Positions 13,131-56,600 of a DNA stretch of 64,000 nucleotides are shown piece by piece. The notes beneath the pieces are model-generated. The model worked only from the letters and a program-made list of their open reading frames with translations, searched no databases and was not told the origin of the DNA. The stretch is taken from the NCBI GenBank assembly GCA_024280435.1, contig JAJRQD010000026.1:11257-75256 (forward strand), given 5' to 3'. This DNA comes from an archaeon. Lineage in GTDB: Archaea; Asgardarchaeota; Heimdallarchaeia; Heimdallarchaeales; Kariarchaeaceae. The translations under genes and the position numbers were made by a program. Position 1 is the first letter of the stretch, and every line of letters begins with the position of its first letter.

Positions 13131-13142
13131 AAACATAATTCA

Positions 13143-14215: not shown

Positions 14216-15037
14216 TTACGGTGTTGCGGGTCGATATCCACCCATATCTAGAGTTATATACCGATATCCAATTTTCATGAGCTCAGTATTTATGAATTCG
14301 AAAACATCCGGATCCAGTAATTTTGGCAAATCAGATGCACCCACCTCGATTCTGACCAGTTTATCATGATCACGCACCCTTAATTTCAATATATCAAAAT
14401 TATCCCTGATAATACTCTCTGCCAGTGCAATTCTATTTAATCGATCAACAGTGATAGGAATACCAGTAATAACCCTTGATGCCAAACATGCGGTTGCAGG
14501 TTTGATTGCAGTGAGCAAGCCCTCACTAGAGGCGATATGTCTAACCTCTGATTTTGTTATATCTGCGATGACAAGAGGATTGACAACACCATTCTCCTCG
14601 CCCGCAGCATATCCTGGTCTATGACCAGATAGATCAGATATATTCGTACCTGAAACAATCATATCATAATTATATCTCTCACGTATTTTCTCTATAAATC
14701 CAAATAACAGTGTCTTGCAGTGATAGCATCTATTCTCATCATTCATGCGATACTCATCACTGAGATCCACCTCATTGTACTTGATGAATTCAATAGGAAG
14801 ACCCAATTGCAAAGCTTGTTTTTTAGCCACATCCACTTCAAACTCAGGTACTGATGATCCTGTTTGCATTATCAACTTGGTATTCAATGCATATTTTTTA
14901 CTAAGTGCAGCTACAACAGAAGAATCAACACCGCCTGAATATGCCACCACTACCTGTTTATTCTGGAATAATGAGGCAATTCTTCTTACTTTCTCTTCAA
15001 GTACATCTGGATTGATTATTTCTAGATTGATTGACAC
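14216..15037 (-). CDS. PP-loop ATP pyrophosphatase, LarE-like (COG1606)
   Basis: SGGVDSS PP-loop; CYHCK; GTNISDL; ACLASR; RVRDHD..VRIEV; YRYITLDMGGYR. Collinear with the LarE family. Confidence 0.8.
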   Translation of the reverse strand: MSINLEIINPDVLEEKVRRIASLFQNKQVVVAYSGGVDSSVVAALSKKYALNTKLIMQTGSSVPEFEVDVAKKQALQLGLPIEFIKYNEVDLSDEYRMNDENRCYHCKTLLFGFIEKIRERYNYDMIVSGTNISDLSGHRPGYAAGEENGVVNPLVIADITKSEVRHIASSEGLLTAIKPATACLASRVITGIPITVDRLNRIALAESIIRDNFDILKLRVRDHDKLVRIEVGASDLPKLLDPDVFEFINTELMKIGYRYITLDMGGYRPATP

Positions 15038-15099
15038 TGAATTGAATATTGATTTTAGTTTTTTAAAGTTAATATTTGAGGTACTATATAGTTATACAA

Positions 15100-16206: not shown

Positions 16207-16298
16207 CGCTTAATTCATTATATCTTTGTCTAATAGATTAAAATTTCCTGTTGAGTGTTATTAATTGTTAAATTTTTTCTATTTTATTATTTATTGAA

Positions 16299-17615
16299 TT
16301 ATTTACCAACTACTTTTTTGACCATATCTGCCAGTGGTGTACCCTCTACCTCTTCTGAGGCATATTTCACCCTAACAATTGGCTTGTTGACTTTGAGGAC
16401 CCTTGTGATATCAATTGGAGTAGCAGATAGTACAACATCACAATCTACGTTCTCAATTACCTCATTCATCTCTTGGATCTGCTCTGCAGAATAACCAAGT
16501 GCAGGCAATGCCATGTCCAGTTGGGTATACTTATCAAATGCGGCTTTGATAGTACCTACAAGAGCAGGCTTTGGATCAACCACCTCAAGGCCTAATCTCT
16601 CTGCTGCAACCATACCTGCACCAAATGCCATGGAACCATGTGTGATGGTTGGACCATCCTCAATAACAAGTACTTTTTTACCTTTGACTGCCTCTACATC
16701 CTCAACTGTCACAATTGAATTTGTCTTCAGGATTACTGCTTCTGGATTTACCTTTACTGCATTGTCATACACAGTCTTGATATTCTCTTCTGATGCGGAA
16801 TCTACCTTGTTAATTATTATCACACTTGCAGACCTGAAATTAGTCTCACCTGGATGATACATTAATTCATGACCGGGCCTATGTGGATCTGCCAAGGTGA
16901 TATGAAGATCAGGTTTGACAAATGGTGTATCATTGTTTCCTCCATCCCAGATGATAACATCTGCCTCTGTTTCAGCCTGTCTCAGGATCTTCTCATAATC
17001 AACCCCTGCATAGATTACAAAACCCTGATCAATATAGGGTTCATATTCCTCCCTTTCCTCAATTGTACACTCATGCTTATCAAGATCAGCATATTCTGCA
17101 AATCTCTGAGAAACTTGTTTTGATAGATCACCATAGGGCATTGGATGTCTCAATGCAACTACTTTCAGACCCTCTTTTTTCAGAATGTCTGTGACATATC
17201 TTGATGTCTGTGATTTACCAACTCCAGTACGGACAGCAGTGATAGAAATCACAGGTTTATCAGTTTTCAACATGGTTTTGTCCATTGAGTGCAATTTGAA
17301 ATCAGCACCATTAGCATTTGCCAGAGATGCAAGGTTCATAACTTCCTCATGTCTCACATCAGAATATGCGAATACACAGGTGTCAATCTTCTTCTCTCGG
17401 ATGATACTAACAAGATCTTTCTCATCTAGAATATCAATACCATTTGGATATAATTCACCAGATAATACAGGGGGATATTTACGCCCTGCAATACCCATAA
17501 TCTGTGTAGCCGTGAATGCTACAACTTCAACATCGGAATTCTGACGATAAATCATATTAAACACATGAAAATCTTTACCAGCAGCTCCTAGAATTAAAAC
17601 TCTTTCTTTTGCCAT
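16299..17615 (-). CDS. Cyclic 2,3-diphosphoglycerate synthetase-like P-loop protein (COG2403 family)
   Basis: 438 aa. N-terminus VLILGAAGKDFHVFN and Walker A VRTGVGKSQTS. The size and architecture resemble archaeal cDPG synthetase. Assigned from memory of the family, so moderate confidence only. Confidence 0.5.
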   Translation of the reverse strand: MAKERVLILGAAGKDFHVFNMIYRQNSDVEVVAFTATQIMGIAGRKYPPVLSGELYPNGIDILDEKDLVSIIREKKIDTCVFAYSDVRHEEVMNLASLANANGADFKLHSMDKTMLKTDKPVISITAVRTGVGKSQTSRYVTDILKKEGLKVVALRHPMPYGDLSKQVSQRFAEYADLDKHECTIEEREEYEPYIDQGFVIYAGVDYEKILRQAETEADVIIWDGGNNDTPFVKPDLHITLADPHRPGHELMYHPGETNFRSASVIIINKVDSASEENIKTVYDNAVKVNPEAVILKTNSIVTVEDVEAVKGKKVLVIEDGPTITHGSMAFGAGMVAAERLGLEVVDPKPALVGTIKAAFDKYTQLDMALPALGYSAEQIQEMNEVIENVDCDVVLSATPIDITRVLKVNKPIVRVKYASEEVEGTPLADMVKKVVGK

Positions 17616-17699: not shown

Positions 17700-19577
17700 T
17701 TATTTTTTCAGAGATAGAGCCATAATTTTCTCAACTCTTTTGGACATTTTATTGAAATCGGGTACATCTCCATCCGCCAATCTTGCATTATCAAGTATCT
17801 GATGTATAGTCAGATCGATAATCTCATCATCAGCATTTGCCTCAAATTTCTCATTAAGATCTTTGATTATCTCATGTTCGGGATTGAGTTGTAATACCTT
17901 GCCCATCATTGGTAGAGACATAGTGGAACCAGATTGAGTCTCCATTATCTTCATCGCCCTCTGAAGATCCGATGACATTCCACCTTTGGGTGTGACCAAA
18001 CGTGCAACAGCAGAGATCAGCCTATCAGATGTTTTTACATCTGCAATTGTACCTCCCAGAGTATCTGCAAAACGATCCATCAGTTTTCCAATAGGCCCTG
18101 TTCTCTCTTTCTTCTTAGGTTCCTCATCCTCTTCACCCTCTTTTGGCTCCTCTGGAGGATCTAATTCAACTGATTCATCCTGATCAATAAGGAAGAATTT
18201 TTTCTCATTGTAATCATGAAGATGCATCATTAAAAATGAGTCGATGGCTTCTCCTAGTAGGATAACCTCATAACCCTCTTTCTCATAATATTCAAGATGT
18301 GGGCTCTTTTTCAGTGCTTCAAGATCAAATCCGGACAGATAATATATCTCCTCCTGATCTGGTTTCATCCTCTCGACATACTGTGCAAGAGTTGTAGAAC
18401 CATCTTTTCCATCCTCATGTGTTGTGTGGAAACGAAGCAGTTCAACTAATCTATCCTTGAATTTATCATTGGATGCTATACCTTCTTTGATGAATGGACC
18501 AAACTCTCTGAAGAACTCAAGGTATTTCTCCCCATCATCCTTTGCCATATCCTCAAGTGTTGACAGGATCTTTTTGTGGAGATAATTCTTCATCTGTCTC
18601 TGCATTCTTGAACTCTGCACAACCTCACGGGATACATTTAGCTCAAAATCCTCTGCATCAACCACACCTATAACAAATCTAAGATACTCGGGTAATATAT
18701 CCTTGTTCTTATCATCAATCAGTATCTTTCGGTTGTAAAGTTTAATACCCCAATCACTATCCTGCTGATTGAACATTTTATTCTTTGTCGGGGGTATGTA
18801 CAGTAATCCATAGAATAGACTAGGTGATTCAACTCTTACGTGTATCTTAGTGGTGTAATCACCAAATTGACCGAGATGATTATAGAATTCTTTATACTGC
18901 TCATCAGTCACCTCACTGGGAGATACTCTCCAAAGTGCTGTTTGTTCATTTAATGTATCCTCACCCATTTTAATTGGAAACTCAATATAATTACTGTACT
19001 GACTTACAAGTGACTTTATTCGGTAGTCCTCAAGATATTCACTCTCATCCTCTTTGACATAGAGTATAATATCAGTACCTCGGGTATCCTTATCACACTC
19101 CTCAATTGAGAATGAATTCTGACCTGTTGAGCTCCATTTATGTGCCTTTTCACCAGGAATTGCAGATTTACTGATCACATCAACCTCATCTGCAACGAGA
19201 AATGTTGAGTAAAAGCCAACACCAAATTGACCAATAAGTGTCTCATCCCCACTCTCAATTGCTTTGATAAACTCCTCAGTACCGGACTGAGCAATTGTTC
19301 CCAGGTTCTTCACCATTTCATCCTTTGTCATACCAATACCATAGTCACGAATAGTGATTGTCTTGGCCTCTTTGTCAAGAATGATCTCAATCTCAAGTTC
19401 CCTCTCCTCATCAAAAATCTCCTCATTGGTAAGTTGTCTTATTCTTACCTTATTCAAGGCATCAGATGCGTTTGATAGGACCTCTCTCAGAAATACCTCT
19501 TTCTGTTGATAAAGGCTGTTGATTATGATATCTAATATCTTTGTTGTATCTGTCTTAAATTCATATTCTGAACTCAT
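17700..19577 (-). CDS. htpG: Hsp90-family chaperone HtpG
   Basis: 625 aa. GHKL ATPase N-terminus (FLRELISNASDALDK-like: FLREVLSNASDALNK), IGQFGVGFYS motif, and full middle and C-terminal domains. Confidence 0.9.
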   Translation of the reverse strand: MSSEYEFKTDTTKILDIIINSLYQQKEVFLREVLSNASDALNKVRIRQLTNEEIFDEERELEIEIILDKEAKTITIRDYGIGMTKDEMVKNLGTIAQSGTEEFIKAIESGDETLIGQFGVGFYSTFLVADEVDVISKSAIPGEKAHKWSSTGQNSFSIEECDKDTRGTDIILYVKEDESEYLEDYRIKSLVSQYSNYIEFPIKMGEDTLNEQTALWRVSPSEVTDEQYKEFYNHLGQFGDYTTKIHVRVESPSLFYGLLYIPPTKNKMFNQQDSDWGIKLYNRKILIDDKNKDILPEYLRFVIGVVDAEDFELNVSREVVQSSRMQRQMKNYLHKKILSTLEDMAKDDGEKYLEFFREFGPFIKEGIASNDKFKDRLVELLRFHTTHEDGKDGSTTLAQYVERMKPDQEEIYYLSGFDLEALKKSPHLEYYEKEGYEVILLGEAIDSFLMMHLHDYNEKKFFLIDQDESVELDPPEEPKEGEEDEEPKKKERTGPIGKLMDRFADTLGGTIADVKTSDRLISAVARLVTPKGGMSSDLQRAMKIMETQSGSTMSLPMMGKVLQLNPEHEIIKDLNEKFEANADDEIIDLTIHQILDNARLADGDVPDFNKMSKRVEKIMALSLKK

Positions 19578-29851: not shown

Positions 29852-30616
29852 ATGGCAAAAAAAAACAGATCTGAAGATGAAAACAAAATGATTGGATCAA
29901 TTCTAAAAATTAGAAATACTATGAAAGATGATTTGAAAGATTATCAGGTCATTCTTGGTTTCTCAGGATTTGGAAATATAGGATATTTAAGCCTCTCCCA
30001 TATAATTGAGACAGCAGAACTTGAGGCATTCAGTTTCTGGGGAGCAAATTCATGGTTTTACCGAGATAATATAGAATCCACCATAACTGCATATATGCAT
30101 CATGAATCAAAATCAGTCATAATTACATCTAGACTACCTATTTTCGTATCCGCCATGACAAAGGCCTTTTGGGACAGATTAATTGAAGATATACTGGCAT
30201 GGGAATGTAGAAGATATATCGTCATTGCAGGTCTGAGGGAAGAGACCAGAGAGGCAATGTCAACCGATTGGGCTGCATTCATTCCTACTAAAAAATGGAC
30301 CAAACTATATGGACATACAAGAAATTTTGCTGATAAACTCACCATGATTGGTCCTTTGAGCTCTATACTACTATTAGGAACAACTATGAACATACCAGTA
30401 CTTGGATTACTAGCATATTGTAATCTGGAAGATGACCCTGATGCGGCATTGTTTACACTCAAACAGATTGAAGAACTGGCCGACATCAATATCGAAATGA
30501 AAGATAAATTACAGCTATTTGACTTTAATTTCTTGTCAACGGGTATAACACAGAATACAGAGATAGTTGAAGAGGACCTTGATGATGATGAATTCAACAT
30601 AGATGATCTACTGTGA
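29852..30616 (+). CDS. PAC2-family proteasome assembly chaperone-like protein
   Basis: 254 aa; N-terminal GFSGFGNIGYLSLSHIIE resembles the PAC2/COG1938 motif; acidic C-terminal tail. Confidence 0.5.
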   Translation: MAKKNRSEDENKMIGSILKIRNTMKDDLKDYQVILGFSGFGNIGYLSLSHIIETAELEAFSFWGANSWFYRDNIESTITAYMHHESKSVIITSRLPIFVSAMTKAFWDRLIEDILAWECRRYIVIAGLREETREAMSTDWAAFIPTKKWTKLYGHTRNFADKLTMIGPLSSILLLGTTMNIPVLGLLAYCNLEDDPDAALFTLKQIEELADINIEMKDKLQLFDFNFLSTGITQNTEIVEEDLDDDEFNIDDLL

Positions 30617-30830: not shown

Positions 30831-31400
30831 ATTTCATCTACATCAGGAAGAAAACTATACAAAGTAAGTCTCCTTGGCGATGGTGGTGTTGGAAAGACAT
30901 CACTAAGACATCGTTACCTGGGTCAAGGATTTAAAGCCAATTACATGGCAACTATTGGTGCAGACTTCGCTATAAAGAAATTAGGTGATAATATTATTCA
31001 GATATGGGATCTTGCAGGTCAAGAAAGATTCTCAGTTGTAAGAGAGGGATATTATATTGGTACAAAGGGTGCAATGCTTGTTTTTGATATCACCAGACCA
31101 GAGACATTTCGTTCCATTCCAAATTGGATACGAGAATTATTGAATAACCTCAGCCATGATGATATTATTCCCCTTGTGCTTATAGGAAACAAAGCAGATC
31201 TACGAGAGATGGATAGCCCTAATTATATTTCTAGAGAGCAGGGAATATCATATGCACAGGAATTAGCAGACTGGTCAGAATTTGATGTACCCTATGTTGA
31301 AACCTCAGCAAAGACTGGTTTAAATGTAGACCTGATATTCAATACACTTGTAAATAATATTGCTAAAAAACAGGGAAATTTTTTCTCAAATATTACTTAA
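30831..31400 (+). CDS. Rab/Ras-like small GTPase (start codon uncertain)
   Basis: In-frame upstream of the first ATG (30945) lie G1 (LLGDGGVGKTS) and switch I. Downstream are WDLAGQERF (G3), GNKADL (G4) and ETSAKTG (G5). No ATG/GTG/TTG occurs between the upstream stop (30825-30827) and 30945. The ATT at 30831 is taken provisionally as the start. Confidence 0.75.
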   Translation: MSSTSGRKLYKVSLLGDGGVGKTSLRHRYLGQGFKANYMATIGADFAIKKLGDNIIQIWDLAGQERFSVVREGYYIGTKGAMLVFDITRPETFRSIPNWIRELLNNLSHDDIIPLVLIGNKADLREMDSPNYISREQGISYAQELADWSEFDVPYVETSAKTGLNVDLIFNTLVNNIAKKQGNFFSNIT

Positions 31401-35665: not shown

Positions 35666-36337
35666 TCACAAGAGGTACTTGACTGGAAAGTATTTTCTCA
35701 GAAGTATTGGAACTTTGGAATGTGTAAGCTCTTCTTCAAAATCAATCTCATCATCTTCCAGCCAACCATCATTGAACCATACATTTTTGTCTGGAAAAAT
35801 AATATTCAGGCTATGTTTCAACTCTGCAAGTACGGCAATATCCATTGTTTCAAAGATCACATCTCCGGGATAATTCTCATCGACGATTATTGCCAACTGA
35901 AATATACCATTCTCATCTGATACTACTTTGAATCCAATAGCCTGGTTGAATCTTATCTCATCTTCTAAAAATTCAGATTGTGAGCCATCGATCCATGTTA
36001 GTGTTCTAAAAGTCCGGACTTTATTATTATCATCAAAAGTTATCACAAAACCCATCAAATCCTCAGTCAATTCTGATCTGAACTTTTTTCTATAGAAGTA
36101 AAGTGGAATTAATATTAAATAGAAAATCATGAGAAAATACTGATCAAGCAATATAACAAAATACAGAGAAAATAAAATAGACAATATACTGAGTTTTAGA
36201 GCCTTATTTGTAATTTGATACATTTTGAAGAGTGTTGACCGGGAATTATTCCGCATATAATCTGTGAATTCAAGTTCTTTATTCCGGGTTTCATTTACAA
36301 TTAGCAATATTATCACAATATACCATACATATATCAA
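35666..36337 (-). CDS. Membrane protein, hypothetical
   Basis: Three N-terminal TM helices plus a soluble C-terminal domain. Confidence 0.4.
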   Translation of the reverse strand: MIYVWYIVIILLIVNETRNKELEFTDYMRNNSRSTLFKMYQITNKALKLSILSILFSLYFVILLDQYFLMIFYLILIPLYFYRKKFRSELTEDLMGFVITFDDNNKVRTFRTLTWIDGSQSEFLEDEIRFNQAIGFKVVSDENGIFQLAIIVDENYPGDVIFETMDIAVLAELKHSLNIIFPDKNVWFNDGWLEDDEIDFEEELTHSKVPILLRKYFPVKYLL

Positions 36338-36408
36338 ATGTTACAATATATACAGAGGAAATTGTATAATTTTTAATATGAATATATATTTATAAAAATT
36401 GAATAACT

Positions 36409-36969
36409 TTGAATAAAATACAATGTCTAGAATGTGAGTATGAGAACCCAGATTATGCAAATTTTTGTGTAAACTGTGGAAATAATATTTCCGGGACCAA
36501 AGCTAGATTTATGCGACTTCAGAAGAGATTAACACACAAATCAAAAGATTGGATACAAGATATTAGAAATTCCATTGATAATCGCATAAATGGTATGCTA
36601 TATCAAATGGATACTAATCAGCAATTCAAGATTGGAGGCATAAACATTCCAGATAACAGAAAGAATACCATCAGAAATGCGCTCAACTCATTTCAGAGCA
36701 AGTATGGTACTGAAGAAGAGGTAAGTGAGGATTTCAAAATATGGATGGACAATCTAGAGGATATGCTTGAGGAACAGAAGTGTATAGTCTGCTATTCCAA
36801 CTGGAAGAAGAATGATGACATTGTAGTTTGTAAACATTGCAGATCAGGAGGACATAAAGAGCATCTATTCAGCTGGGTAATGAATAATAACAACTGTCCA
36901 CTTTGCAGACAAAATTTAACATCAACAGGTCTGATTAAAATAGAATTTAAGGAAAAAATAAACAATTAA
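36409..36969 (+). CDS. Zinc-ribbon plus RING-H2-like finger protein
   Basis: N-terminal C-x2-C...C-x2-C (CLECEYENPDYANFCVNCG). C-terminal CIVC-x11-CKH-x5-H-x2-H-LFSW-x6-CPLC aligns with the RING-H2 cross-brace (C-x-H...H..C...W...CPxC). Confidence 0.55.
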   Translation: MNKIQCLECEYENPDYANFCVNCGNNISGTKARFMRLQKRLTHKSKDWIQDIRNSIDNRINGMLYQMDTNQQFKIGGINIPDNRKNTIRNALNSFQSKYGTEEEVSEDFKIWMDNLEDMLEEQKCIVCYSNWKKNDDIVVCKHCRSGGHKEHLFSWVMNNNNCPLCRQNLTSTGLIKIEFKEKINN

Positions 36970-37663: not shown

Positions 37664-40231
37664 TTACTCAATAATTACATGATCATTATCGAGATTTAGT
37701 CTGATCTCATTCTTATCAGTACCAGATAGCAGATAATTTGCCAATTCATTACTGATATATTTCTGTATCGCCCTTTTTAATGGTCTTGCACCAAACGCGG
37801 GATCATACCCTTTTTCAGCAAGAAATTCCTTGACCTCATCAGGTATTATCAGAGTGATATCCTGATCTGCAAGTCTATTATTTAACCTCTGTAGCTGTAT
37901 CTCAACAATACCCTTCATATCATCACGGGATAATGTTCTGAATATCACCAGCTCATCAAATCTATTGATAAATTCGGGTAGAAAATACATCTTCAATTCT
38001 TCAAAGACAGCCTTCTCGATCTCATCCATTAATTTGCCCTCACGGTTTAGCTCAAATATTTTGGCACTACCAACATTGCTGGTGGCAATTATCACAGTAT
38101 TGGTGAAATCAACAACTCTACCCTTGGCATCTGTGAGACGCCCATCATCTAGTATCTGCAAGAACATGTTGAATACATTTGGATGAGCTTTCTCCATCTC
38201 ATCAAGTAGTATGACAGAGTATGGCTTTCTTCTGACCTGTTCTGTTAGTTGGCCACCCTCATCATATCCAACATATCCCGGTGGGGAACCGATCAGTTTT
38301 GCCACAGAATGTGCTTCCTTGTACTCAGACATATCAATGCGAATTAGCATATTCTCATCATCAAATAGAAATTCAGCCAGTGACTTTGCCAGTTCAGTCT
38401 TTCCTACACCGGTAGAACCCATGAACAGGAATGAACCCAGTGGTCTATCAGTTGCGGTGATACCAGCTCTTGCACGTCTGATTGTCTGTGCTAATTTCTC
38501 CACAGCAACTTCCTGTCCGATCACTCTTTTGGTGAGTATCTGTTCCATATTCAGAAGTTTATCCTTCTCCTCCTGTACTATCTTGCTAGCTGGGATTCCA
38601 GTCCACAGAGCAATTATATTAGCAATATCAATCTCACCAATCTCCTCCCTTAACAAATTATCCGCACCCTCAGACAGTTTATCTTTTTCAGACTGAAGTT
38701 TTGCATTCAGATCGGGGAGTAAGCCATACTGTATACGTGCCATCTCATCAAGGTTACCAGATCTCTGAGCCTGTTCCATCATTATCTTGGTCTCCTCGAT
38801 TGCGGATTTGTACTTGCTGATATTATCAATTATATCTTTCTCCTGTTCCCATCTGACTTTTATGGCAGCTAGTTCAGTGGATAGTTGCTCAATCTGTTCC
38901 TCGATAGCTTTGACTCTATTCTTAGATACGGCATCGGTCTCTCTTCGTATACTATATTTCTCCATCTCAAGTTGTCGTATTTTCCTATCAAGTTCATCAA
39001 TCTCAGTGGGTACAGACTGTATCTCCATTGATAGAGCTGCTGCTGCCTCATCTAATAGATCTATCGCCTTATCAGGGAGGAACCTATCAGATATATATCT
39101 TGATGATAACACAGCAGCTGCAACTATTGCCTCATCATGTATACGAATGCCATGATGCACCTCATATTTCTCTTTAAGACCCCTGAGAATAGATATGGTA
39201 TCAGTCACGCTTGGTTCATCCACCATTATTTTCTGGAAACGTCTCTCCAGAGCACTATCTTTCTCGATATATTTTTTATACTCATCAAAGGTTGTTGCAC
39301 CGATGGCATGGAGAGAACCACGTGCAAGTGCAGGTTTCAGCAGGTTAGACGCATCCATTGCACCTTGTGTGGCACCAGCACCGACAAGTAGATGTATCTC
39401 ATCAAGGAAAAGAATTATCTGTCCCTCTGCCTCTTCTATCTCTTTGACAACAGCTTTCAATCTCTCCTCAAATTCACCCCTGAATTTTGCACCTGCAACC
39501 AGTGCACCCATATCAAGGGCCATGACAGTTTTATTTTTCAGTGATTCGGGTACATCCTGATTGACTATTCTCTGTGCAAGTCCCTCTACAATTGCTGTTT
39601 TTCCAGTACCAGGCTCACCTAGTAATATTGGATTATTTTTTGTTCTTCGGGATAGTATGTGTATCACACGTCTGATCTCTGCATCTCTGCCAATGACCGG
39701 ATCGAGCTTTCCCTTCATTGCCAGTTCTGAGAAATTGATAGCATATTGTTCGAGTGATTGGAATGAGTTCTCTGCATCCTGGTTATTTATTGCATTAGAT
39801 CCTCTAATTTCATCCAATGCCATCTCAATTGTTTTTTTAGAAATATTCTGATGACTTATTAGTTTCTGAAATGGTTTAGATTTGGCCAGCATTCCTTTGA
39901 TGATAGTATCAATTGATACATACTCATCATTGCTTGCAATCATTATTTTCTCGGCTTGATTAAGAGCAGAGTTCAGATCAGATGAGAGAGATGGAGAGCC
40001 TCCGGATACTTTTGGAAATTTATTGTATTCCTCTTCTATCTGATTTTTGAATAGTTGTATATTGGCACCTGCTTTCTGCAGAACTGATTGTAAAATACTC
40101 TGATCCTGTTCTAGAAGTATTTTAATCAGATGGATAGCAGATATTTCGGGGTGTTCGTTCATATCAGCCAGTGATTGTGCGTCTTGAATGGCTTCTTGAG
40201 CCTTGTATGTATATTTTCGTATATTTACCAT
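37664..40231 (-). CDS. clpB: ClpB (Hsp100) disaggregase
   Basis: 855 aa; two AAA+ modules (GEPGTGKT and GSTGVGKTE Walker A motifs) with a coiled-coil middle domain. Confidence 0.9.
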
Positions 40232-43376: not shown

Positions 43377-44252
43377 CTAGAACATATTGAAAAAAGCGAA
43401 TATATTGGGAATAACACCTAATAAAACAAGTATAACAATGATAAATAGCAGCATAGCCCCATTGTAGTTATTACCTTTTACGCCTTGATGAAGAATATAG
43501 ATACTGTAGATTTTTCCCAGCAATCCAAGAATAATTACAGCAATCAGATAGAATGTGGAGTAATTATAAGAGGGAACAGGTACTGTGGTGACCACACCAA
43601 ATAAGTCAACTGAAGAAGTAGTATAGCTCACTGAAATATCTGGATGAATAGCTAATAAAACAAGTTGAATAATTCCAACTGCAATTCTTGGCAGATAGGT
43701 ATATGCGTTAAGCCTCCTCATTGCCTTGAAAGTATCATATCTAATTGGTTCCTCCGGTGCAAATCCGGATTTTAAGAATAAAGAGAGTAATAAAGCTCCA
43801 AAATACCAAAAAATCAGCAAAGTGATGAAAATCGTGATTGAGTTGGTAATATTTGGCTGAGTAATACTTTCCATAAGTACAGATTTGTCACCATCATCTA
43901 TATCTGATGAGAATACAACAGTTTTCACCTTCATTGCAGTGATTACTGGAATCAACGCCTCAACCAAAGCAAGAATGATAACCAGAATTAATGGATTAGG
44001 TGCCCTGGGATCCTGTAATAAACCGGGTGATACTCTTGCCGTATCTTTCAACATATCAACTGAGGCATTCATAATATTACCACCTTCATATACAATCGAT
44101 GTCATCACCATTGGCTGAGCCTGTTGAGGTACTTGCTGGAATTCTCCCAATGCAGAGAATTTTCCTGCCACAGTGAATTCAGTTCCACAGTTATCACAGA
44201 ATTTTAAATCATCAGCAGATTCTACGCCACAATTTTTACAATATTTTGACAT
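43377..44252 (-). CDS. Zinc-ribbon-anchored polytopic membrane protein
   Basis: N-terminal CKNCG...CDNCG zinc ribbon followed by about six TM helices. Confidence 0.45.
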   Translation of the reverse strand: MSKYCKNCGVESADDLKFCDNCGTEFTVAGKFSALGEFQQVPQQAQPMVMTSIVYEGGNIMNASVDMLKDTARVSPGLLQDPRAPNPLILVIILALVEALIPVITAMKVKTVVFSSDIDDGDKSVLMESITQPNITNSITIFITLLIFWYFGALLLSLFLKSGFAPEEPIRYDTFKAMRRLNAYTYLPRIAVGIIQLVLLAIHPDISVSYTTSSVDLFGVVTTVPVPSYNYSTFYLIAVIILGLLGKIYSIYILHQGVKGNNYNGAMLLFIIVILVLLGVIPNIFAFFNMF

Positions 44253-45325: not shown

Positions 45326-47056
45326 ATGAGTTTGGATTGGCTTGCCTCCGTTCGATTATTCTTTAGAGATGAAAAAGAGGCATTTCTATTTCTTGGAACA
45401 GAACAAAAGCCCAGATCCACATATATCAGAATCACAGATAGATTTGATAAACCTAGATACTACCCCCCCATCCCGCTTGATAAATTACAGGAAAAATTCA
45501 ACCTCAATATAACTCTTGATAACTCACTCATAAATGATGAATTCAAACTATTGTTATCACTTATTATCAGAGAGAGATTGAGCAACCCAATTATTCAATA
45601 CAATGAGGAACTTTCCAATTGGATTGACAATGGAGTTGAGAGTGATATATTGGGATATATAATACAGATAATCAGCAATGATAAAAGAATTGCAAGACAG
45701 CATGCACTCTATAAACTAGTTAAAACACGATCAGATACATCTGAGATAGTATTAACATGTATGATAGATCTGAGAGAGGAGATCAGTATTGCTATTATCA
45801 GAGAATTAGGCAGATGGAGTATATGTCTTGACCGTGCATTAAAATTCTCCAAAGATAATACTGAAACAAAAGGGGCACTTGGATTTTACTCAAAATTGTA
45901 CCTGATCAGATATAATAAACAGACCATGGACATCAGTGATGTAAAACAAAGTATCACCCTTGTTAAGAAATTCAATTCAATTCACAAAATCAAATTTGAT
46001 ATGAAAAATATACCATATCTGACTTTTGAGGGCCTACCTTATCTTGCCACTTCAGACAAAGAGCTTTATGCCAAGATAATAGATAAATTGGTCAAATACA
46101 GATTATCAGGCAAAAATTACCGGGCTGCATTGATGCGAATAGTAAAATATGCAGAAATACTAGAATCTGTGGAACTAGTAGGGGGATTAGTGTGCTTGAC
46201 ACTGAATAATCGTTCAGTACATATTTATAGAGAAAAACAAACTATATATTTCCATGAAGATGAATTTATTGTGTACCCCCGACAGAGATTATTATCTCTG
46301 ATAAATATATGGGAAATTACTGGAAGAGATGATCTGCTTGATGCAGTACTGATATTTATCATCAGACATATACCGGCAGAGATCAATCTATTTGGAAAAA
46401 CCAGATACAAATATATCAATATGACACAATGGTTGGACACAATGCCACTGATAAAAGATCATTCTGACAGGATACAATTGATACTGTATAACGATCAGGA
46501 ATTATTACGAGACATTATAATTCATTTATCTAGAAATTTTAATCTACATTTCTACACCTGGTTACTTCAACATATAGATAATGAGATTATTAAGGAAATA
46601 CTATCAGAATTGAGCTTCAATGATAAATTACATATATACAGCTCGGCATATGTTTACCCACCGGATTTCAATCTATTGCATTATCTGAAAAAATACAGCA
46701 AGAATGCTTCCTTTGGACATTGTGATTTTGTTCCAACAAAGGATAGTCTCAAACAGACACTTAGTTTTTTCTATAGATTAAGATTTATACTGCCAGATAG
46801 AATATTCGATCAAATTGCAGAACTAATTCATGATGATAATTACAAGAAAATGAATATACACTCATTGTTGATCAAATATATGAAAAAAGTAATTTATCGT
46901 CACAAAAAAATATCAGATAGATATGCAAATATAATTCTTGAGAGAATAATCAATAATAGACACAGCAATTGTAAATTATGTGTGAACCAGTTAGATTATC
47001 TGAATAACTGGAAAAATATACCACTCATTCAATCCCAGAGGCTTGGCAGGACATAA
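45326..47056 (+). CDS. RT-operon gene 1: large alpha-helical repeat protein, function unknown
   Basis: 576 aa, predicted all-alpha with HEAT/ARM-like periodicity, no catalytic motif. First gene of a co-directional four-gene block. Confidence 0.5.
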   Translation: MSLDWLASVRLFFRDEKEAFLFLGTEQKPRSTYIRITDRFDKPRYYPPIPLDKLQEKFNLNITLDNSLINDEFKLLLSLIIRERLSNPIIQYNEELSNWIDNGVESDILGYIIQIISNDKRIARQHALYKLVKTRSDTSEIVLTCMIDLREEISIAIIRELGRWSICLDRALKFSKDNTETKGALGFYSKLYLIRYNKQTMDISDVKQSITLVKKFNSIHKIKFDMKNIPYLTFEGLPYLATSDKELYAKIIDKLVKYRLSGKNYRAALMRIVKYAEILESVELVGGLVCLTLNNRSVHIYREKQTIYFHEDEFIVYPRQRLLSLINIWEITGRDDLLDAVLIFIIRHIPAEINLFGKTRYKYINMTQWLDTMPLIKDHSDRIQLILYNDQELLRDIIIHLSRNFNLHFYTWLLQHIDNEIIKEILSELSFNDKLHIYSSAYVYPPDFNLLHYLKKYSKNASFGHCDFVPTKDSLKQTLSFFYRLRFILPDRIFDQIAELIHDDNYKKMNIHSLLIKYMKKVIYRHKKISDRYANIILERIINNRHSNCKLCVNQLDYLNNWKNIPLIQSQRLGRT

Positions 47057-47157
47057 TTACAGGTATAGAGATTGTACATAAGGAGATAATAGGTAAAATT
47101 TCAGTTGATGCTATCACACCCCTGACAATCAAAACAATAACCACAAGTTACAGAATA

Positions 47158-48114
47158 ATGAATGGTATGATACATCCCATTATAGAGGATAATATTAAAT
47201 TTGCATTGAACAAATACAACTGGGATCAACTAGCAAGACATTATCTGGCTCTTGGATTGGAAAGACCACAAAGAGAGGCATTAATAGCTTCAGAATTGAA
47301 AAATATTCCGAAAATGTTACTCAGAGACCAGCTAGGAAGGATTGCGCTGGTCAGTCAAACTATACTGTACGGAATGGATTTTGGATTCACTCCAGCTCTG
47401 GAGAATGTGATAATCAATAATATATACATGCGAGGTTGGAATATTGATAATAATATACAGAACAGACTGATCAGATTACTTGCTAGTGTTTCATTCAAAT
47501 TCAGATCATTCATTGCTGCCTATTTAATTCTTGAGAAAAGTGAGGTGAATAATGAGATACTGTTATTGGCAAGAGATGTATCATCTAAAATAATCAGAGA
47601 TAGATTACTAAGAACTCTTGAGAGATTTGGCTCTGCGGATATGTGGTATGCACTTGCAGGTTCAACATTTGAAGATCTAGCAGAAACTGCAACAGAACAG
47701 CTGAGAAGACTCAGAATGGGTAAAGAGGACAGATTACGTTTGATACAGACATTACTGAATTCAGAGAAGATAGAGCTGAGACAGATGGCACTGAGATGGA
47801 TGCTGAATCTTGAGTTTATAGAAGATGAGACAATTCCACTGTTCACATCCATATATACAGATACATGGTCAGATCTGATTGATTACTTCAATACCCATAT
47901 AAGATATATAAAAGAGACATATCCTGATTTCAAAAATATAATACAAGATATGATCTGGCGAATTGCAAGCCCTGTCAAGAGCAATGATAAAATTGTGGCA
48001 CTGGCAAGCAAGTTTGATGAACTGAGATCCACTCTTGATGAGCTGAGCAATACCAAAATTAAGAGCAGGTCTGCTGTGATACTACAGAAAATAGTTGGTG
48101 AATTCAATGATTGA
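47158..48114 (+). CDS. RT-operon gene 2: HEAT/PBS-lyase-like repeat protein
   Basis: 318 aa; repeated about 30-aa helical hairpins (LLARDVSSKIIRDRLLRTLERFGSADMWYALAGSTFEDLAETATEQL; RLRLIQTLLNSEKIELRQMALRWML). Confidence 0.5.
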   Translation: MNGMIHPIIEDNIKFALNKYNWDQLARHYLALGLERPQREALIASELKNIPKMLLRDQLGRIALVSQTILYGMDFGFTPALENVIINNIYMRGWNIDNNIQNRLIRLLASVSFKFRSFIAAYLILEKSEVNNEILLLARDVSSKIIRDRLLRTLERFGSADMWYALAGSTFEDLAETATEQLRRLRMGKEDRLRLIQTLLNSEKIELRQMALRWMLNLEFIEDETIPLFTSIYTDTWSDLIDYFNTHIRYIKETYPDFKNIIQDMIWRIASPVKSNDKIVALASKFDELRSTLDELSNTKIKSRSAVILQKIVGEFND

Positions 48115-49570
48115 GATCAAATATTCTGTATCTAATGAGACTGCTGTGGCAAAAAAAGATGATAATATAGTCTATCATTTTGCAACTGATGAAACTCACA
48201 ACAGATTCAATATCACACTGCTCGATCCAAACAAATATCTATATGCATTGAGATCTTCCCTATCAATTCTATTTGACAGGAAAATAATGATCGAACCGGA
48301 TAGATCACAGTATGAACTGTGGTTGGAGTATGAATTATTGAGAATAAGTGAAAAACAATACAATACACAGTCTACAAGAGAAGATGTTGATATCGAGGAT
48401 TATGAGACAATAAAAGAGAGAAGGGATGACTTGCTTGTCAGAGTACGTTCTCAGATAGCATATATGGATAAAGCAGTTAAAAAAATACCACTAGTGAAGA
48501 AAAGACTGATATTTCTGTGGGGTAATTATACATTACCAATATTAAGCTGCTTAGAAAATTATTTCAACATTCATGTATTCACAGATGAACTATACACTGA
48601 ACTATCAATCAAATCACCAAAGATTAGGTTTTATCATGGATTTACAGAGATTACACCCCTGTTCTACGAATCAATAGAAAGTCTTAATCGTGATAGAATT
48701 GTATTTACCAACGAGAGAATCGAGAAAAGACCTGAGATAGCGATTACAAAACTCAACAGATATGAAGAGAATGTAATTGATAATATGCACCTCAGCCAGG
48801 TATTGCTCTATTTTATCAAAAATACCAGTGTAGCCAAACATATAGAGCTGAATAGAGTACAGACCTATGACCTGCTCAGCAAGATAAACAGTATCAGAGG
48901 AGAATTCACACTAGCTATAAAATCAGGTAAGGAATACTCAATATCAATAAAAGATAAAATTGTTAATATAACAATTAAACAGGGTAAGAAAACATCTATC
49001 AGAATTACAATACCTGCTACATTTATCAGATCAATTGAGTTGGTGTTACCATATATCAGAAAGATCAGAATATCAGATACATTGATCGGATCTGTTATAC
49101 AGGTATACACAGATAATTTCATGATGAGCACCTGTCATCTGCAAGAGAATACAATAGAGCTGTATAATATACTGTACAGCATGTATAATTTTGATAGCCC
49201 TAACAAAGATGCAGTTATCAACCAGCTGAAAAATAGAGACTATGCAAATGTAAAATTATTCAATAACAATGAACTATTACAGTTAATTATGGAGGGTAAG
49301 ATCAGATATATCTCAAATAGTAATTCAGTCATCTACAAAAATATGTACAGCTACAACAGAACAAACCAATATACCAATGCAATGTGGTTAAGGAAGATAA
49401 TCCGTACAATTATGGTGTACAGTAAAACCAAGTATACCTGTATTATTGAGGATCATGATATCTCAGTCAGAATATCAAATAGAATACAGGGAGGCTGTAG
49501 TTGTGGAAAATCATGTGATTATGAGATTGCTTTGAAAGCAATAATACTGGAGGATAAACATTATGAGTGA
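48095..49570 (+). CDS. RT-operon gene 3: hypothetical protein (mixed alpha/beta, C-terminal Cys cluster)
   Basis: 491 aa; overlaps gene 2 by 20 nt and the RT by 8 nt (translational coupling). Ends ...GGCSCGKSCDYE. Confidence 0.5.
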   Translation: MVNSMIEIKYSVSNETAVAKKDDNIVYHFATDETHNRFNITLLDPNKYLYALRSSLSILFDRKIMIEPDRSQYELWLEYELLRISEKQYNTQSTREDVDIEDYETIKERRDDLLVRVRSQIAYMDKAVKKIPLVKKRLIFLWGNYTLPILSCLENYFNIHVFTDELYTELSIKSPKIRFYHGFTEITPLFYESIESLNRDRIVFTNERIEKRPEIAITKLNRYEENVIDNMHLSQVLLYFIKNTSVAKHIELNRVQTYDLLSKINSIRGEFTLAIKSGKEYSISIKDKIVNITIKQGKKTSIRITIPATFIRSIELVLPYIRKIRISDTLIGSVIQVYTDNFMMSTCHLQENTIELYNILYSMYNFDSPNKDAVINQLKNRDYANVKLFNNNELLQLIMEGKIRYISNSNSVIYKNMYSYNRTNQYTNAMWLRKIIRTIMVYSKTKYTCIIEDHDISVRISNRIQGGCSCGKSCDYEIALKAIILEDKHYE

Positions 49571-50876
49571 GAAGATAAACAAATTAATGAAAATATTCCA
49601 GGAGCTCAACGATCTAGGTCTGTGGCCAAGATCTATCTCACCACCAGATCCACAGGCACTTGAGAGAATTTATAATCTTGATGTGGATCTGTATAATCGT
49701 AAGTACAAATTATCAGTACCAGATGACAGAGATATTGAAGAGATCAGAGAAGAATACTCCAAAGAGAGTAAAAAAATAAGAGAGAGAAAACGTGTAAAAC
49801 GAGCACAGAAGGAGAGGAGAAAGAGACAGGAATGGAAAAAACTGAAAGAAACTCAGTTTACATATCTTGGGAAAGGTGTATCAGCCAAATTATCATCAAC
49901 AGATGAGAATACTGAATTGATAAAAAAACTAGAATTACCAAGTATAGAAAATGCAGATAAGTTATGTGAGTTTCTGGAAATCGAATTTGATCAGCTTGTA
50001 TGGATGGTATATCACCGAAAAAATAATAGATTCAGCAATTATATAGATTTTGAGATACCCAAAAAAAGTGGAGGAGTGAGAAAAATATCTGCTCCAAAAC
50101 CTTATCTGAAGAGAGTACAGTATATAATCAAAGAGAAAATACTAGATAAGATAGTGTTACCAGATCATGTTATGGGTTTTAAAAACAAAACCTCGATATT
50201 TGACAATGCAAGAGAACATCTCAATGCAGAGATACTGATAAATGTAGATATAGAGAATTTTTTTCAATCAATACGTTATTTCAGAGTAAGATCCATGTTC
50301 ATTAGATTTGGATACTCTGGTGAGATTGCCACCGTGTTATCACTGCTATGTACCAAACAGTATCAGAAGACAGTCAAGATAGGTGAAATCATACATTATG
50401 TGTTCTCAGAGAGCAGATACTTGCCACAAGGTGCACCTACAAGTCCTGTAATCAGCAATATCATTGCATTACCAATGGATAGAAATATCAAGGAGAGAGT
50501 TGAGAAACTTGGCTATAGATACACAAGATATGCGGATGATATCTCAATATCCACAATCAAGAGAGATAAGAAGATAAAAGCAGTGATGAGTATTGTGCAT
50601 CGTACCATGACAATGCATGGATTCAGTATTAACAATAACAAAACAAAAATACGGGGAAAGCATGAGAGACAGGAAGTTACAGGTCTGGTGATTAATTCGG
50701 GAGAGGTGAGAATACCCCGATGGTGGAGGAGAATTTTAAGAGCAAGGATAAACAGATTTATCAGCACAAATGAGGGTGATCCACTATCTTTGCTAGCAAG
50801 TATTGCATATCTAGACACTACCCATCCAGAACTGGCAAATAAGTATCTACAACAGATTATCGATAAAACTAGCTGA
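49563..50876 (+). CDS. Reverse transcriptase, retron-type
   Basis: Motifs 1/2 FEIPKKSGGVRKISAPKPYLKRVQ; NAxxH (NAREH); motif 3 NVDIENFFQSI; motif 4 LPQGAPTSPVISN; motif 5 RYADDISIS; motif 6 NNNKTKI; motif 7 VTGLVIN. N-terminal about 110-aa basic coiled extension. No maturase X or endonuclease domain. Confidence 0.85.
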   Translation: MSEKINKLMKIFQELNDLGLWPRSISPPDPQALERIYNLDVDLYNRKYKLSVPDDRDIEEIREEYSKESKKIRERKRVKRAQKERRKRQEWKKLKETQFTYLGKGVSAKLSSTDENTELIKKLELPSIENADKLCEFLEIEFDQLVWMVYHRKNNRFSNYIDFEIPKKSGGVRKISAPKPYLKRVQYIIKEKILDKIVLPDHVMGFKNKTSIFDNAREHLNAEILINVDIENFFQSIRYFRVRSMFIRFGYSGEIATVLSLLCTKQYQKTVKIGEIIHYVFSESRYLPQGAPTSPVISNIIALPMDRNIKERVEKLGYRYTRYADDISISTIKRDKKIKAVMSIVHRTMTMHGFSINNNKTKIRGKHERQEVTGLVINSGEVRIPRWWRRILRARINRFISTNEGDPLSLLASIAYLDTTHPELANKYLQQIIDKTS

Positions 50877-53298
50877 TATATCTGGCAAGCAGTTTTCTCA
50901 TGCTACCAGTTGACTGATATGCAATTCCGTTGACATTGTGGACTGCATTATCCTTTATTATATTTTTCAGCAGTAGCTCAAATCGTTTTCCCACATGATC
51001 ACATTGATATTTTATCATTTTTGGTATTTTATCCAGCTTAGAGAATGCAATAAAACGATCATTAACAATATCACCAACATATTTGAAATATACATCCACC
51101 ATTCTTTCTCTTGCATATGGTACACTCAGTTTCAGAGCATCATGATATGAGTACAGATCAACCTCAGAGATCTGATCATGTGTATCCTCAATAATTCCAA
51201 CTATCACTGCAATATCATCCTTCTTATTCACAATTGCACGCTCATATACTTTGAAAGGGCGAAAATGCAGCTCTCTTCGGATCTCTGGATGTGGATCAAC
51301 TGGAAATTCCACACCCTGCTTATCCTGTATTGATTTTGTATTTGTAGAATGAGTCATCCAGTATCTTTTGTATTTTGAAGGGTTGTATCGATGAAATTTA
51401 TCTGTGAAAATATATGATACTGCGTGTTCCAGATCAATATATGACGGGAATTTGAATACTATTCCCTCCTCTTCCATCTCAATTGACAGTAGATCATCAA
51501 TCAGATGTGTCACAAATGGTAATTCTTTTCTGTGATACTCATCTCTCTCACGATCATAAACCACCAATCTGATCATGGGCGATAGTGCAGAGATGGTTTT
51601 CCCGGTTTTCGTATGAAAATCATAATCATCTGAATACAATGATACACCTGCAATAAAGCGTTTGTTTGGAGAGATTTTGACCAGTAATGGTACTCCTAAC
51701 TCAAAGGATAGTAGAGGAATATTATTTCCTATACTCCATAAATAACATCTACCATCATAAGATACAGTTGCCACAAAATTATCAACCCTTGCCCACATAG
51801 GTGCAATCCCATAAAAATTATGCCCATCCACCTCAAGATCTCCATAGATCATACGATTTGAGTCCTCGGGATAGTTATCATAGGTTAGCTCGGTTATCAG
51901 TTCTAATTTACTCCAGTACTCTATAAAGTAATAAAGAGAGGAGAGGGATAGTCTTATCTGATCAACTGTTGTACCACCATATTTTATATCTATCAACACA
52001 CTATGCCACTCTCTTACGATTAGATTTGATAGATTATCTCTTTTTGATAGAAAATCATCTTCCTCTACCTTTACATGTTTCTCCTGATTATACAGTATTT
52101 CAGTTGAATTATTCAACTCTCGTTTTTTAAGCATACCCAGTGGGGGAGAACCACCAGCATCCCATTCCAGTAAATATCTTTTATTCTCTTCCAATAATAC
52201 AAATGTATTTTTCTTATATCTAGTTACTGGAAAATCAATGCAGGTATTATCAAACATATCAAATAATGTGTGATTACTACCATCTGCAATCATAAAAAAA
52301 CCTTCTGCAACATTAATTCTTGATAGTCGTTGATTTATTCTTCCTGCAAATAAAAAACTGGGGGCATTACTGAAAAAAATATTTTCTTGTTTTATATGAT
52401 CTGCCAGTGATCGAGATAGTATTTTTTCAGTACAGATCATCTCGCCACCTTGATTAGATATGGTATAGAAATCTTTTTCCCGGTATAGCACACCATATCC
52501 ATCAAAGCTGACAATTGCACCATTTGGATTTTTCTTACGATTAGTTGTAATGAAAAAATCGGGTGATTGATAGACTATAAGCTTATCCAGTAAATAGATG
52601 ATCAAAATACTATTGTGTACAAGATACTGTCTCATACCAGGAGGAAGTTGTAATCGTGGAGTTCTTCTGAACTCACCATAGATGACTATCTCTCCATTGA
52701 GTTCTGTATCATTCTGACGAATTATCTGTTTTCTAACATTATCAATCTTCTTGTTGAATAATCTCTCACCATTCAGCACAAATACTCCAGAGCTAATCTT
52801 GTAGTATATCCTGTTGTCATATATCCATGAAAAATCAACAACAATCTTCTTACCACCTATCTCTTTGATACTTCCCCCGGAGTACACATATAATTTGTTA
52901 TTCAGCCGGATAATATAGTTAATCCGATCCCTGATTTTAAAGAAAGACAGTTTCTTGTTCTCATACACATCCCAGATCAAACACTGCTCATCACCTATGA
53001 TTGCAAGATTAGGTGTATTTCGTACCCATTTTATATCTTTGACAGAGATTGGAGATATAATTATAGAGATAAGGTCAGATACATTCTCTTTTTTCTGCCA
53101 CACGATAATATTATCAGTACCATCTGTTGCAGCATATCGTTCCTGATTCACCACTGCAATCTGGATATCTTGAAAATTGAATTCAATCCATGCATATACC
53201 GATAACATATAATTTATTCTAAATCCATTTAATAATAATTTTATTACAAATATATTGCTAGAAGTTATAAATATTTGAATTGGATACCAAATATTCAT
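50869..53298 (-). CDS. Large hypothetical protein, beta-propeller-like N-terminal half
   Basis: 809 aa. WD-like blades (NIIVWQKKEN, CLIWDVYENKK, RCYLWSIGNN). Its 3' end overlaps the RT 3' end by 8 nt (convergent). Confidence 0.5.
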   Translation of the reverse strand: MNIWYPIQIFITSSNIFVIKLLLNGFRINYMLSVYAWIEFNFQDIQIAVVNQERYAATDGTDNIIVWQKKENVSDLISIIISPISVKDIKWVRNTPNLAIIGDEQCLIWDVYENKKLSFFKIRDRINYIIRLNNKLYVYSGGSIKEIGGKKIVVDFSWIYDNRIYYKISSGVFVLNGERLFNKKIDNVRKQIIRQNDTELNGEIVIYGEFRRTPRLQLPPGMRQYLVHNSILIIYLLDKLIVYQSPDFFITTNRKKNPNGAIVSFDGYGVLYREKDFYTISNQGGEMICTEKILSRSLADHIKQENIFFSNAPSFLFAGRINQRLSRINVAEGFFMIADGSNHTLFDMFDNTCIDFPVTRYKKNTFVLLEENKRYLLEWDAGGSPPLGMLKKRELNNSTEILYNQEKHVKVEEDDFLSKRDNLSNLIVREWHSVLIDIKYGGTTVDQIRLSLSSLYYFIEYWSKLELITELTYDNYPEDSNRMIYGDLEVDGHNFYGIAPMWARVDNFVATVSYDGRCYLWSIGNNIPLLSFELGVPLLVKISPNKRFIAGVSLYSDDYDFHTKTGKTISALSPMIRLVVYDRERDEYHRKELPFVTHLIDDLLSIEMEEEGIVFKFPSYIDLEHAVSYIFTDKFHRYNPSKYKRYWMTHSTNTKSIQDKQGVEFPVDPHPEIRRELHFRPFKVYERAIVNKKDDIAVIVGIIEDTHDQISEVDLYSYHDALKLSVPYARERMVDVYFKYVGDIVNDRFIAFSKLDKIPKMIKYQCDHVGKRFELLLKNIIKDNAVHNVNGIAYQSTGSMRKLLARYIS

Positions 53299-55910: not shown

Positions 55911-56600
55911 ATGAATCTTGATACAGTCATTCAAAGATGCCAATCACAGGGGTATACTATCTCAGATAGATTGATAAAGATAGTAGATTCAATTGATAGG
56001 AGTATTTTTGTTGAGAGTAAATATCAAGAGAGAGCCACTGATGATAACCCACTGCCAATTCCCAATAATCAGACCATCTCAGCACCCCATATGGTTCTGA
56101 TGATGCTTGCTGATGAGGCACTAGATGTACATGCAGGTGATAAGGTATTGGAGATCGGTACTGGTAGTGGCTATAATGCGGCGATATTAACATTACTGGT
56201 GGGAGAGAATGGTAAATTAATCACTATTGAACGTCATGCAAAACTGGTTGAATTTGCTCGAAATAATATGATCAATGCAAAAATACCACTGAATTATGAG
56301 ATAATTCATGGTGATGGAACTCTTGGATTATCAGATATGCAATTTGACAGAATAATTGTAACCGCATCAGGTCCATATATCCCGGATACACTGATAGAGC
56401 AGCTTAAATCAGGTGGAAAAATGGTTATTCCTGTTAAAAGCAGAGTATATGAGATATTATTGCGAGTTGAGAAGATAGATAGCACAGATAAATCCAATAA
56501 AGAGTACATGCAAAGAAACAGTGAATTTATTGATAAAATCAGGATTACGGATCTTGGAGGTGTTAGATTTGTACCACTTGTTGGAAAATATGGACATTAA
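55911..56600 (+). CDS. pcm: Protein-L-isoaspartate O-methyltransferase
   Basis: ISAPHMV and VLEIGTGSGYNAA SAM-binding motifs; 229 aa. Confidence 0.85.
   Translation: MNLDTVIQRCQSQGYTISDRLIKIVDSIDRSIFVESKYQERATDDNPLPIPNNQTISAPHMVLMMLADEALDVHAGDKVLEIGTGSGYNAAILTLLVGENGKLITIERHAKLVEFARNNMINAKIPLNYEIIHGDGTLGLSDMQFDRIIVTASGPYIPDTLIEQLKSGGKMVIPVKSRVYEILLRVEKIDSTDKSNKEYMQRNSEFIDKIRITDLGGVRFVPLVGKYGH

Follow-up and report, generated by a model that had tools for sequence, protein, structure and literature searches.

A probable stand-alone RING-type E3 ubiquitin-ligase-like protein with an N-terminal zinc ribbon in a Heimdall-group Asgard archaeon

The gene described here lies at 36409..36969 on the forward strand of a 64-kb stretch of archaeal DNA, hereafter the window, which has a G+C content of around 35%. 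As judged by the ORF list and the sequence, it is a complete gene with a TTG start and a TAA stop, encoding a protein of 186 aa. Inspection of the sequence upstream showed no in-frame ATG, GTG or TTG, and in the alignment the homologues begin at the same point, with their first cysteine 2-6 residues after it. The ORF is a real gene. An identical protein is found in NCBI assembly GCA_024278115.1, and the closest relative, at 48% identity, comes from a MAG annotated as Candidatus Heimdallarchaeota. From N- to C-terminus, the protein is made up of a zinc ribbon, a helical stretch of about 90 residues and a RING finger.

The upstream neighbour is a divergent gene at 35666..36337 on the reverse strand. 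Its longest ORF is 223 aa, and alignment with its homologues places the start at 36307, giving 213 aa. The AT-rich intergenic region between the two divergent genes (36338..36408) is 71 bp long when measured from this longest ORF and about 101 bp long if the upstream gene starts at 36307; several TATA-like runs can be seen in its sequence. The upstream gene encodes an uncharacterised protein with two predicted transmembrane (TM) helices and a beta-rich C-terminal domain, referred to below as the 2-TM neighbour. The remaining neighbours of the RING gene encode an F420 oxidoreductase, a response regulator, a polyprenyl synthase, an uncharacterised 206-aa protein and ClpB. We collected related loci from six close sequences, which gave three genome loci and five metagenome loci. 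The gene order polyprenyl synthase, response regulator, F420 oxidoreductase, 220-aa protein, RING gene is common to four Heimdall-group loci.

The window was then searched with Pfam (30 ORFs of at least 100 aa were scanned, and precomputed Pfam hits were used for the remaining window), and no E1 (ThiF-type), E2 (UQ_con), ubiquitin or JAB/Rpn11 gene was found in the 64 kb. Similarly, the stretches of about 6-10 kb around the homologues examined contained no ubiquitin-system genes, and tblastn of the window and the fetched loci with human ubiquitin and UBE2D2 (approximate queries) gave nothing under E = 5. The RING gene thus lies outside any ubiquitin/E2/E1/Rpn11 cluster, as it does at the other loci examined. 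NCBIfam gave no useful hits.

Several other genes were noted in the course of this survey. Chaperone genes for HSP90/HtpG (17700..19577) and ClpB (37664..40231) are both on the reverse strand of the window, which also carries a PAC2 gene (29852..30616) and a gene for a PCMT protein-repair methyltransferase (55911..56600). At locus L002, from a related Heimdall MAG, HSP90 (11763..13847) is encoded three genes downstream of the RING gene, at about the place that ClpB occupies in the window. The chaperone, PAC2 and PCMT genes may reflect a loose proteostasis theme or a coincidence. A retron-type-XIII-like cluster spans 45326..53298; its reverse transcriptase (RT; 49563..50876, forward strand) matches the PADLOC RT_XIII model over nearly its full length (E 1.6e-122, 408 bits), an ORF upstream of it (47158..48114) matches WGR_XIII weakly (1e-4), and no family was assigned to the flanking ORFs (576, 491 and 809 aa). 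Such a cluster looks unusual on an Asgard archaeal contig. Further along are a fusion of an N6/N4 DNA methylase with a RAMA domain (57275..58429, reverse strand) and a protein with a WD40-type beta-propeller that weakly matches the THOC3 propeller (61430..62608, forward strand). Near the RING homologue of locus L002, in turn, a 639-aa protein with a Cas12f1-like_TNB (TnpB/Cas12f-type) domain is encoded at 14813..16732 on the reverse strand.

The N-terminal zinc ribbon comprises residues 4-25 (36418..36483, forward strand) and has the pattern C6-x2-C9-x10-C20-x2-C23, with beta strands predicted at residues 3-5 and 12-14 in the AlphaFold model. The Pfam models Zn_Ribbon_1 (21.9 bits) and DZR (20.0 bits) both match it under their respective cut-offs, and the zinc ribbon that the initial annotation had read here is borne out by this pattern and these sub-threshold matches. 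The four cysteines are present in 28-29 of the 32 family members in our alignment, the remainder being N-terminally truncated records, and zinc-ribbon models match 26-27 of the 32. The spacing of the ribbon, together with N13, agrees with the NZF pattern C-x2-C-x3-N-x6-C-x2-C. Ubiquitin binding by NZF fingers is recognised by a Thr-Phe dipeptide after the second cysteine. In the present protein this position is occupied by E-Y and is not conserved in the family, and we therefore rejected an NZF/RanBP2-type ubiquitin-binding reading; no Pfam match of the protein to zf-RanBP was found at E<=10. A zinc ribbon of the same DZR/Zn_Ribbon_1 type is found at the N-terminus of a Yip1-domain membrane protein encoded elsewhere in the window (43377..44252, reverse strand).

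Between the ribbon and the RING finger lies a middle module of residues 30-120 (36496..36768, forward strand). The AlphaFold model, with pLDDT values of 82-92 in this region, predicts a long helix (30-68), a hairpin at about 74-80 and two further helices (82-98 and 104-120). The module has no Pfam family, and Foldseek gave no PDB fold match for the protein beyond the RING. It is presumed to be a substrate- or partner-binding or dimerisation module. The C-terminal tail (36919..36966, forward strand) contains a conserved hydrophobic strand at residues 175-178 in the model, with L175 and I176 invariant among the six closest family members. A role for the tail in dimerisation is something we would only infer.

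The RING finger itself occupies residues 121-170 (36769..36918, forward strand) and reads C125-IV-C128-x12-C141-K-H143-C144-RSGG-H149-KE-H152-LFS-W156-x6-C163-P-L-C166-R167. The zinc ligands C125, C128, C141, C144, H149, H152, C163 and C166 give the pattern C-x2-C-x12-C-x2-C-x4-H-x2-H-x10-C-x2-C, in which pairs follow in 2 + 2 + 2 + 2 order with RING-compatible spacing. The residues predicted to contact an E2 enzyme are I126, W156 (four residues past H152) and P164, and R167 is the putative linchpin. A loose regular expression for RING fingers found a single match in the six-frame translation of the window and none in 50 shuffles.

In order to place the protein in a family, we ran an exhaustive profile search against 1.84 billion representatives, which returned 704 proteins at E<=1e-3. 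Among these matches are about 35-40 full-length representatives of the family, of 176-250 aa. Family members that bear a source name are all Asgard: they come from Kariarchaeaceae (P0003, P0008), Heimdallarchaeota (P0002, P0030, L005), Hodarchaeales (the P0027 and P0032 clusters) and Thorarchaeota (P0022), and Hermodarchaeota gave a RING-only match. Some members already carry the NCBI name 'RING finger domain-containing protein'. The initial annotation had drawn attention to the rarity of RING proteins outside eukaryotes and Asgard archaea. The RING assignment behind this remark holds; the argument from rarity drops, since the closest relatives come from MAGs of Heimdallarchaeota, Kariarchaeaceae, Hodarchaeales and Thorarchaeota, that is, the group already excepted.

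Conservation was counted in a 32-sequence alignment (A2) with pairwise identities of about 20-50%. All eight ligands and P164 are invariant (32/32), position 126 is hydrophobic in every member, W156 is present in 31 of 32, confirming the conserved tryptophan that had been pointed out earlier, and position 167 is Arg or Lys in 30 of 32. The family signature is C-x2-C-x12-18-C-x2-C-x4-H-x2-H-x10-11-C-P-x-C, i.e. C4H2C2. The residue H143, which had been counted as a ligand when the finger was first described as RING-H2, is His in 15 homologues, Asn in six, Tyr in five and another residue in the remaining six. Given this variability and the invariance of C144, H149 and H152, the ligand set is C4H2C2 rather than C3H2C3, with C144 as ligand 4 and H152 as ligand 6, and the RING-H2 label is hence inaccurate. 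The spacing 'CKH..H..H' given in support of that label also misdescribes the sequence, as H143 and H149 are separated by five residues and not two. With a Cys at ligand 4, a His at ligand 6 and a ligand 4-5 loop that is one residue longer (x4 as against the usual x2-3), the series is unlike that of any classical RING class. A literature search found 'C4H2C2' in use only as the name of a zinc finger in LSD2, and not for any RING class. As judged by these sequences, the family is conserved in Asgard archaea and its architecture is fixed.

The domain matches point in the same direction. The best Pfam hit of the protein is Prok-RING_1 (PF14446), which scores 29.1 bits (E 9.4e-7), exactly its cut-off, and covers only profile positions 3-33 of 54. 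The zf-RING_2 model falls just short of its own cut-off (26.9 vs 27.3 bits) and spans the whole RING domain. Across the family, zf-RING_2 matches all 32 members at E<=0.01, as against 23 of 32 for the partial Prok-RING_1 profile. A phmmer search of PDB sequences found Arkadia (4.3e-5), RNF24 (1.2e-4) and EL5 (7.6e-4), followed by RNF165 and Rbx2, so that the best sequence matches of known structure are all RING-H2 E3s.

An AlphaFold2 model of the protein built from the 32-sequence alignment has a mean pLDDT of 91.1 and a pTM of 0.72, and pLDDT values over the RING of 93-98. The RING fold, with two short strands (138-141 and 147-149) and a central helix (150-160), is present in the predicted model, together with the terminal strand 175-178. 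When the model was compared with the PDB using Foldseek, the matches were almost only RING/U-box domains, including those of Rad18, the Prp19 U-box, RNF126, RING1B, Arkadia, EL5, RNF38, the RNF165-UbcH5b~Ub complex and RNF4; the rest were related zinc fingers from IFT-A subunits and a pair of weaker hits to PHD fingers. The best-fitting RING/U-box structures superpose with an rmsd of 1.2-2 Å over about 50-60 residues at a probability of about 1. The corresponding E-values of 0.01-0.2 are weak because the domain is small. On sequence and model together, the C-terminal 50 residues are predicted to be a two-zinc cross-brace RING, as first proposed from the ligand spacing, with the Pfam and PDB sequence matches, the modelled fold and the conserved E2-contact and linchpin residues all in agreement. 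The best match of this C-terminal domain is accordingly a RING finger and not another treble clef such as a ribosomal or transposase zinc ribbon.

A peptide- or nucleic-acid-reading finger of PHD-like or other non-RING binuclear treble-clef type has to be weighed against this assignment, as the spacing C-x2-C...C-x2-C-x4-H-x2-[H] resembles that of C4HC3 PHD fingers. In both the RINGv (C4HC3) and the PHD consensus a Cys at ligand 4 is followed by a His at ligand 5, as in the present protein, and weak hits were obtained to MTF2 (E 0.54 among PDB sequences) and to PHD6 of MLL3 (Foldseek probability 0.5-0.85). RINGv fingers, however, have a ligand 4-5 spacing of x7 whereas the Asgard protein has x4, and its ligand 6 is His, which does not fit C4HC3. 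PHD fingers also lack the RING helix and its tryptophan; here the modelled helix 150-160 bears a tryptophan four residues past ligand 6, and a proline follows ligand 7, both of which are RING features. Pfam gave no PHD match even at E<=10, and RING/U-box structures rank above the PHD hits throughout. We therefore regard a PHD-like finger as very unlikely.

The position of Prok-RING_1 as top Pfam hit, and the retron-type RT cluster 13 kb away, could also be read as placing the protein in a prokaryotic conflict or defence system with a Prok-RING finger. The partial extent of the Prok-RING_1 match speaks against this, and neither the RING protein nor either of its neighbours has a significant PADLOC match. 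Furthermore, the neighbourhood is of a housekeeping kind (polyprenyl synthase, F420 oxidoreductase, ClpB) and syntenic across genomes, and the surroundings of the homologues show no defence-island signature. A defence role is in our view highly improbable.

The best sequence and fold matches of the RING are thus to eukaryotic RING-H2 E3s, namely Arkadia/RNF111, RNF165/Ark2C, RNF24, RNF38, rice EL5 and Rbx2. These share with it the cross-brace two-zinc fold and the positions of the hydrophobic residue after Cys1, the helix tryptophan, the proline after Cys7 and the linchpin arginine. They differ in being C3H2C3, where the Asgard protein is C4H2C2 with the longer ligand 4-5 loop, and they have no counterpart of its zinc ribbon and helical module; its host, moreover, is an archaeon. 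A second comparison is offered by srfp, the small RING finger protein of Caldiarchaeum subterraneum, an archaeal E3 that has been reconstituted biochemically (PMC5654768). It carries an Ile, a Trp and an Arg at the equivalent positions, all needed for its function, and its third/fourth ligand is likewise off register, with an extra Cys (PMC5654768). In vitro, the I30Q mutation of the Caldiarchaeum RING protein abolishes ubiquitylation, and W58A and R69A impair it (PMC5654768). The srfp gene belongs to a ubiquitin/E2/E1/srfp/Rpn11 operon (PMC5654768), whereas the Asgard gene is stand-alone, has no ubiquitin-system neighbours and encodes about 120 additional N-terminal residues.

Collectively, these data suggest that the gene product is probably a RING-type E3 ubiquitin-ligase-like protein, soluble and located in the cytoplasm of its Heimdall-group Asgard host. 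As judged by the alignment, the family retains every residue expected to be needed for E2~Ub activation, and on sequence and model the most likely function is that of a stand-alone RING E3 that activates E2~ubiquitin. An E3-like factor, as the initial annotation had cautiously offered, is the best reading because the Pfam and PDB matches, the confident model with its RING/U-box folds and the conserved E2-contact and linchpin residues all favour it.

We propose a classical RING mechanism on the grounds that the E2~ubiquitin residues are conserved at about 20-50% identity and that the corresponding Caldiarchaeum residues are sensitive to mutation. The RING would bind the E2~ubiquitin thioester through Ile126, Trp156 and Pro164. 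Arg167, immediately after the last cysteine, would act as the linchpin that holds E2~Ub in its closed, reactive conformation, and a lysine of the substrate would then receive ubiquitin straight from the E2, with no intermediate on the E3. The zinc ribbon together with the three-helix module probably selects substrates, or may bind a partner or mediate dimerisation. As the gene lies outside any ubiquitin operon, other parts of the genome would have to supply the E1, E2 and ubiquitin.

The same domain might instead have no E2 partner and serve only as a non-catalytic zinc scaffold that holds proteins together or helps complexes assemble, in the manner of the RING-like fingers in subunits of coatomer, GATOR2 and IFT-A. 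Weak matches in sequence and fold were obtained to the zinc fingers of MIOS/WDR24/SEH1 and of IFT-A, and the Zf_2nd_IFT121 model matches 4 of the 32 family members; the absence of nearby ubiquitin-system genes and the unusual ligand set would also fit. What argues against such a scaffold is that the residues that matter only for E2~Ub, i.e. the hydrophobic position 126, W156, P164 and the Arg/Lys at position 167, are conserved at about 20-50% identity, and that the top sequence matches are catalytic RING-H2 E3s. On this basis we consider a purely structural role unlikely.

Two ORFs at 2623-3215 had been described as beta-grasp ubiquitin-like proteins, and a conjugation link with the RING protein had been suggested. 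One of the two, an 80-aa protein (2973..3215), has a precomputed Pfam ThiS hit and a C-terminal ...PVGGG; against NCBIfam it matches SAMP1, MoaD_arch and MoaD, all far under the cut-offs. This protein is, as judged by sequence, of the ThiS/MoaD/SAMP beta-grasp type and not ubiquitin proper. The other, a 116-aa ORF, has no family match, so that family matches back the beta-grasp description for the 80-aa protein and not for its partner. The gene directly downstream of the pair (3351..5135) encodes an aldehyde:ferredoxin oxidoreductase (AFOR_N/AFOR_C). The RING protein could in principle act with these proteins in a SAMP-like conjugation, given the GGG terminus of the 80-aa protein and its weak matches to SAMP1 (3.4e-4) and MoaD_arch (5.3e-4). 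The two loci are nevertheless 33 kb apart, no E1 was found in the window, and the position of the pair beside the oxidoreductase, together with a MoeA in the window, fits a sulfur-carrier/cofactor setting. To our knowledge, archaeal sampylation requires only an E1-like enzyme, with neither an E2 nor a RING E3. The suggested link finds no support in these observations, including the lack of E1, E2, ubiquitin and JAB genes in the window and near the homologues, and we judge a SAMP-like role exceedingly improbable.

Returning to the stand-alone RING E3, its sole recurrent partner in an all-against-all comparison of neighbours is the 2-TM protein, which adjoins the RING gene in 6 of 10 loci. At locus L009 a rearrangement has placed it downstream of the RING gene, on the same strand. 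Most of these six loci have wider synteny in common, and the P0011 lineage has a different gene upstream of the RING gene; a conserved operon of the two genes was therefore rejected. The 2-TM neighbour has no Pfam, NCBIfam or PADLOC family. A model from four sequences is of low confidence (pLDDT 61) and predicts an N-terminal hairpin followed by a pair of long hydrophobic helices, then six or seven strands and another helix. Its Foldseek matches are non-significant (all E >= 0.09), the top few being PH-like (ELMO1, Spt16, Rtt106, FERM) with an rmsd of 9.7-15.5 Å, so that a PH-like domain is a hint only. The 2-TM protein may be a partner or substrate of the RING protein. With no family match, a low-confidence model and non-significant fold matches, we treat this functional link as a weak lead and not as a result.

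RING proteins are generally counted among the eukaryotic signatures of Asgard archaea, for which a complete ubiquitin machinery has also been reported. Another typical Asgard eukaryotic-signature protein, an Arf/Ras/Roc-like small GTPase, is encoded in the window at 30945..31400 on the forward strand, and the PAC2 gene of the window is likewise of Asgard type. Since RING proteins are an acknowledged Asgard signature, and the NCBI label 'RING finger domain-containing protein' already exists, the presence of a RING protein is in itself unsurprising, and this protein and its family are therefore of a known kind. The family is an uncharacterised one of known type; its ligand set departs mildly from the usual, and the N-terminal module is fixed.

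A bolder reading, which we offer as speculation and think distinctly unlikely, is that these proteins form an uncharacterised, Asgard-specific family of stand-alone E3s, with a C4H2C2 RING of its own and a zinc-ribbon/three-helix substrate module, that acts with the 2-TM, possibly PH-like, neighbour in membrane-associated protein quality control. Such a family would be a pre-eukaryotic analogue of membrane-tethered RING E3s. If this were true, the diversification of E3s beyond a single operon-encoded RING would already have been under way in the archaeal relatives of eukaryotes, Hodarchaeales included.

RING E3 ligases are the source of the substrate specificity of the eukaryotic ubiquitin system, and the manner and timing of their diversification form part of the question of eukaryogenesis. 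The locus described here adds a compact family of fixed architecture, found in Hodarchaeales, Kariarchaeaceae and other Asgard lineages and encoded outside ubiquitin operons. At 186 aa and soluble, the protein would be a tractable candidate for addressing whether Asgard archaea already had several substrate-specific E3s.
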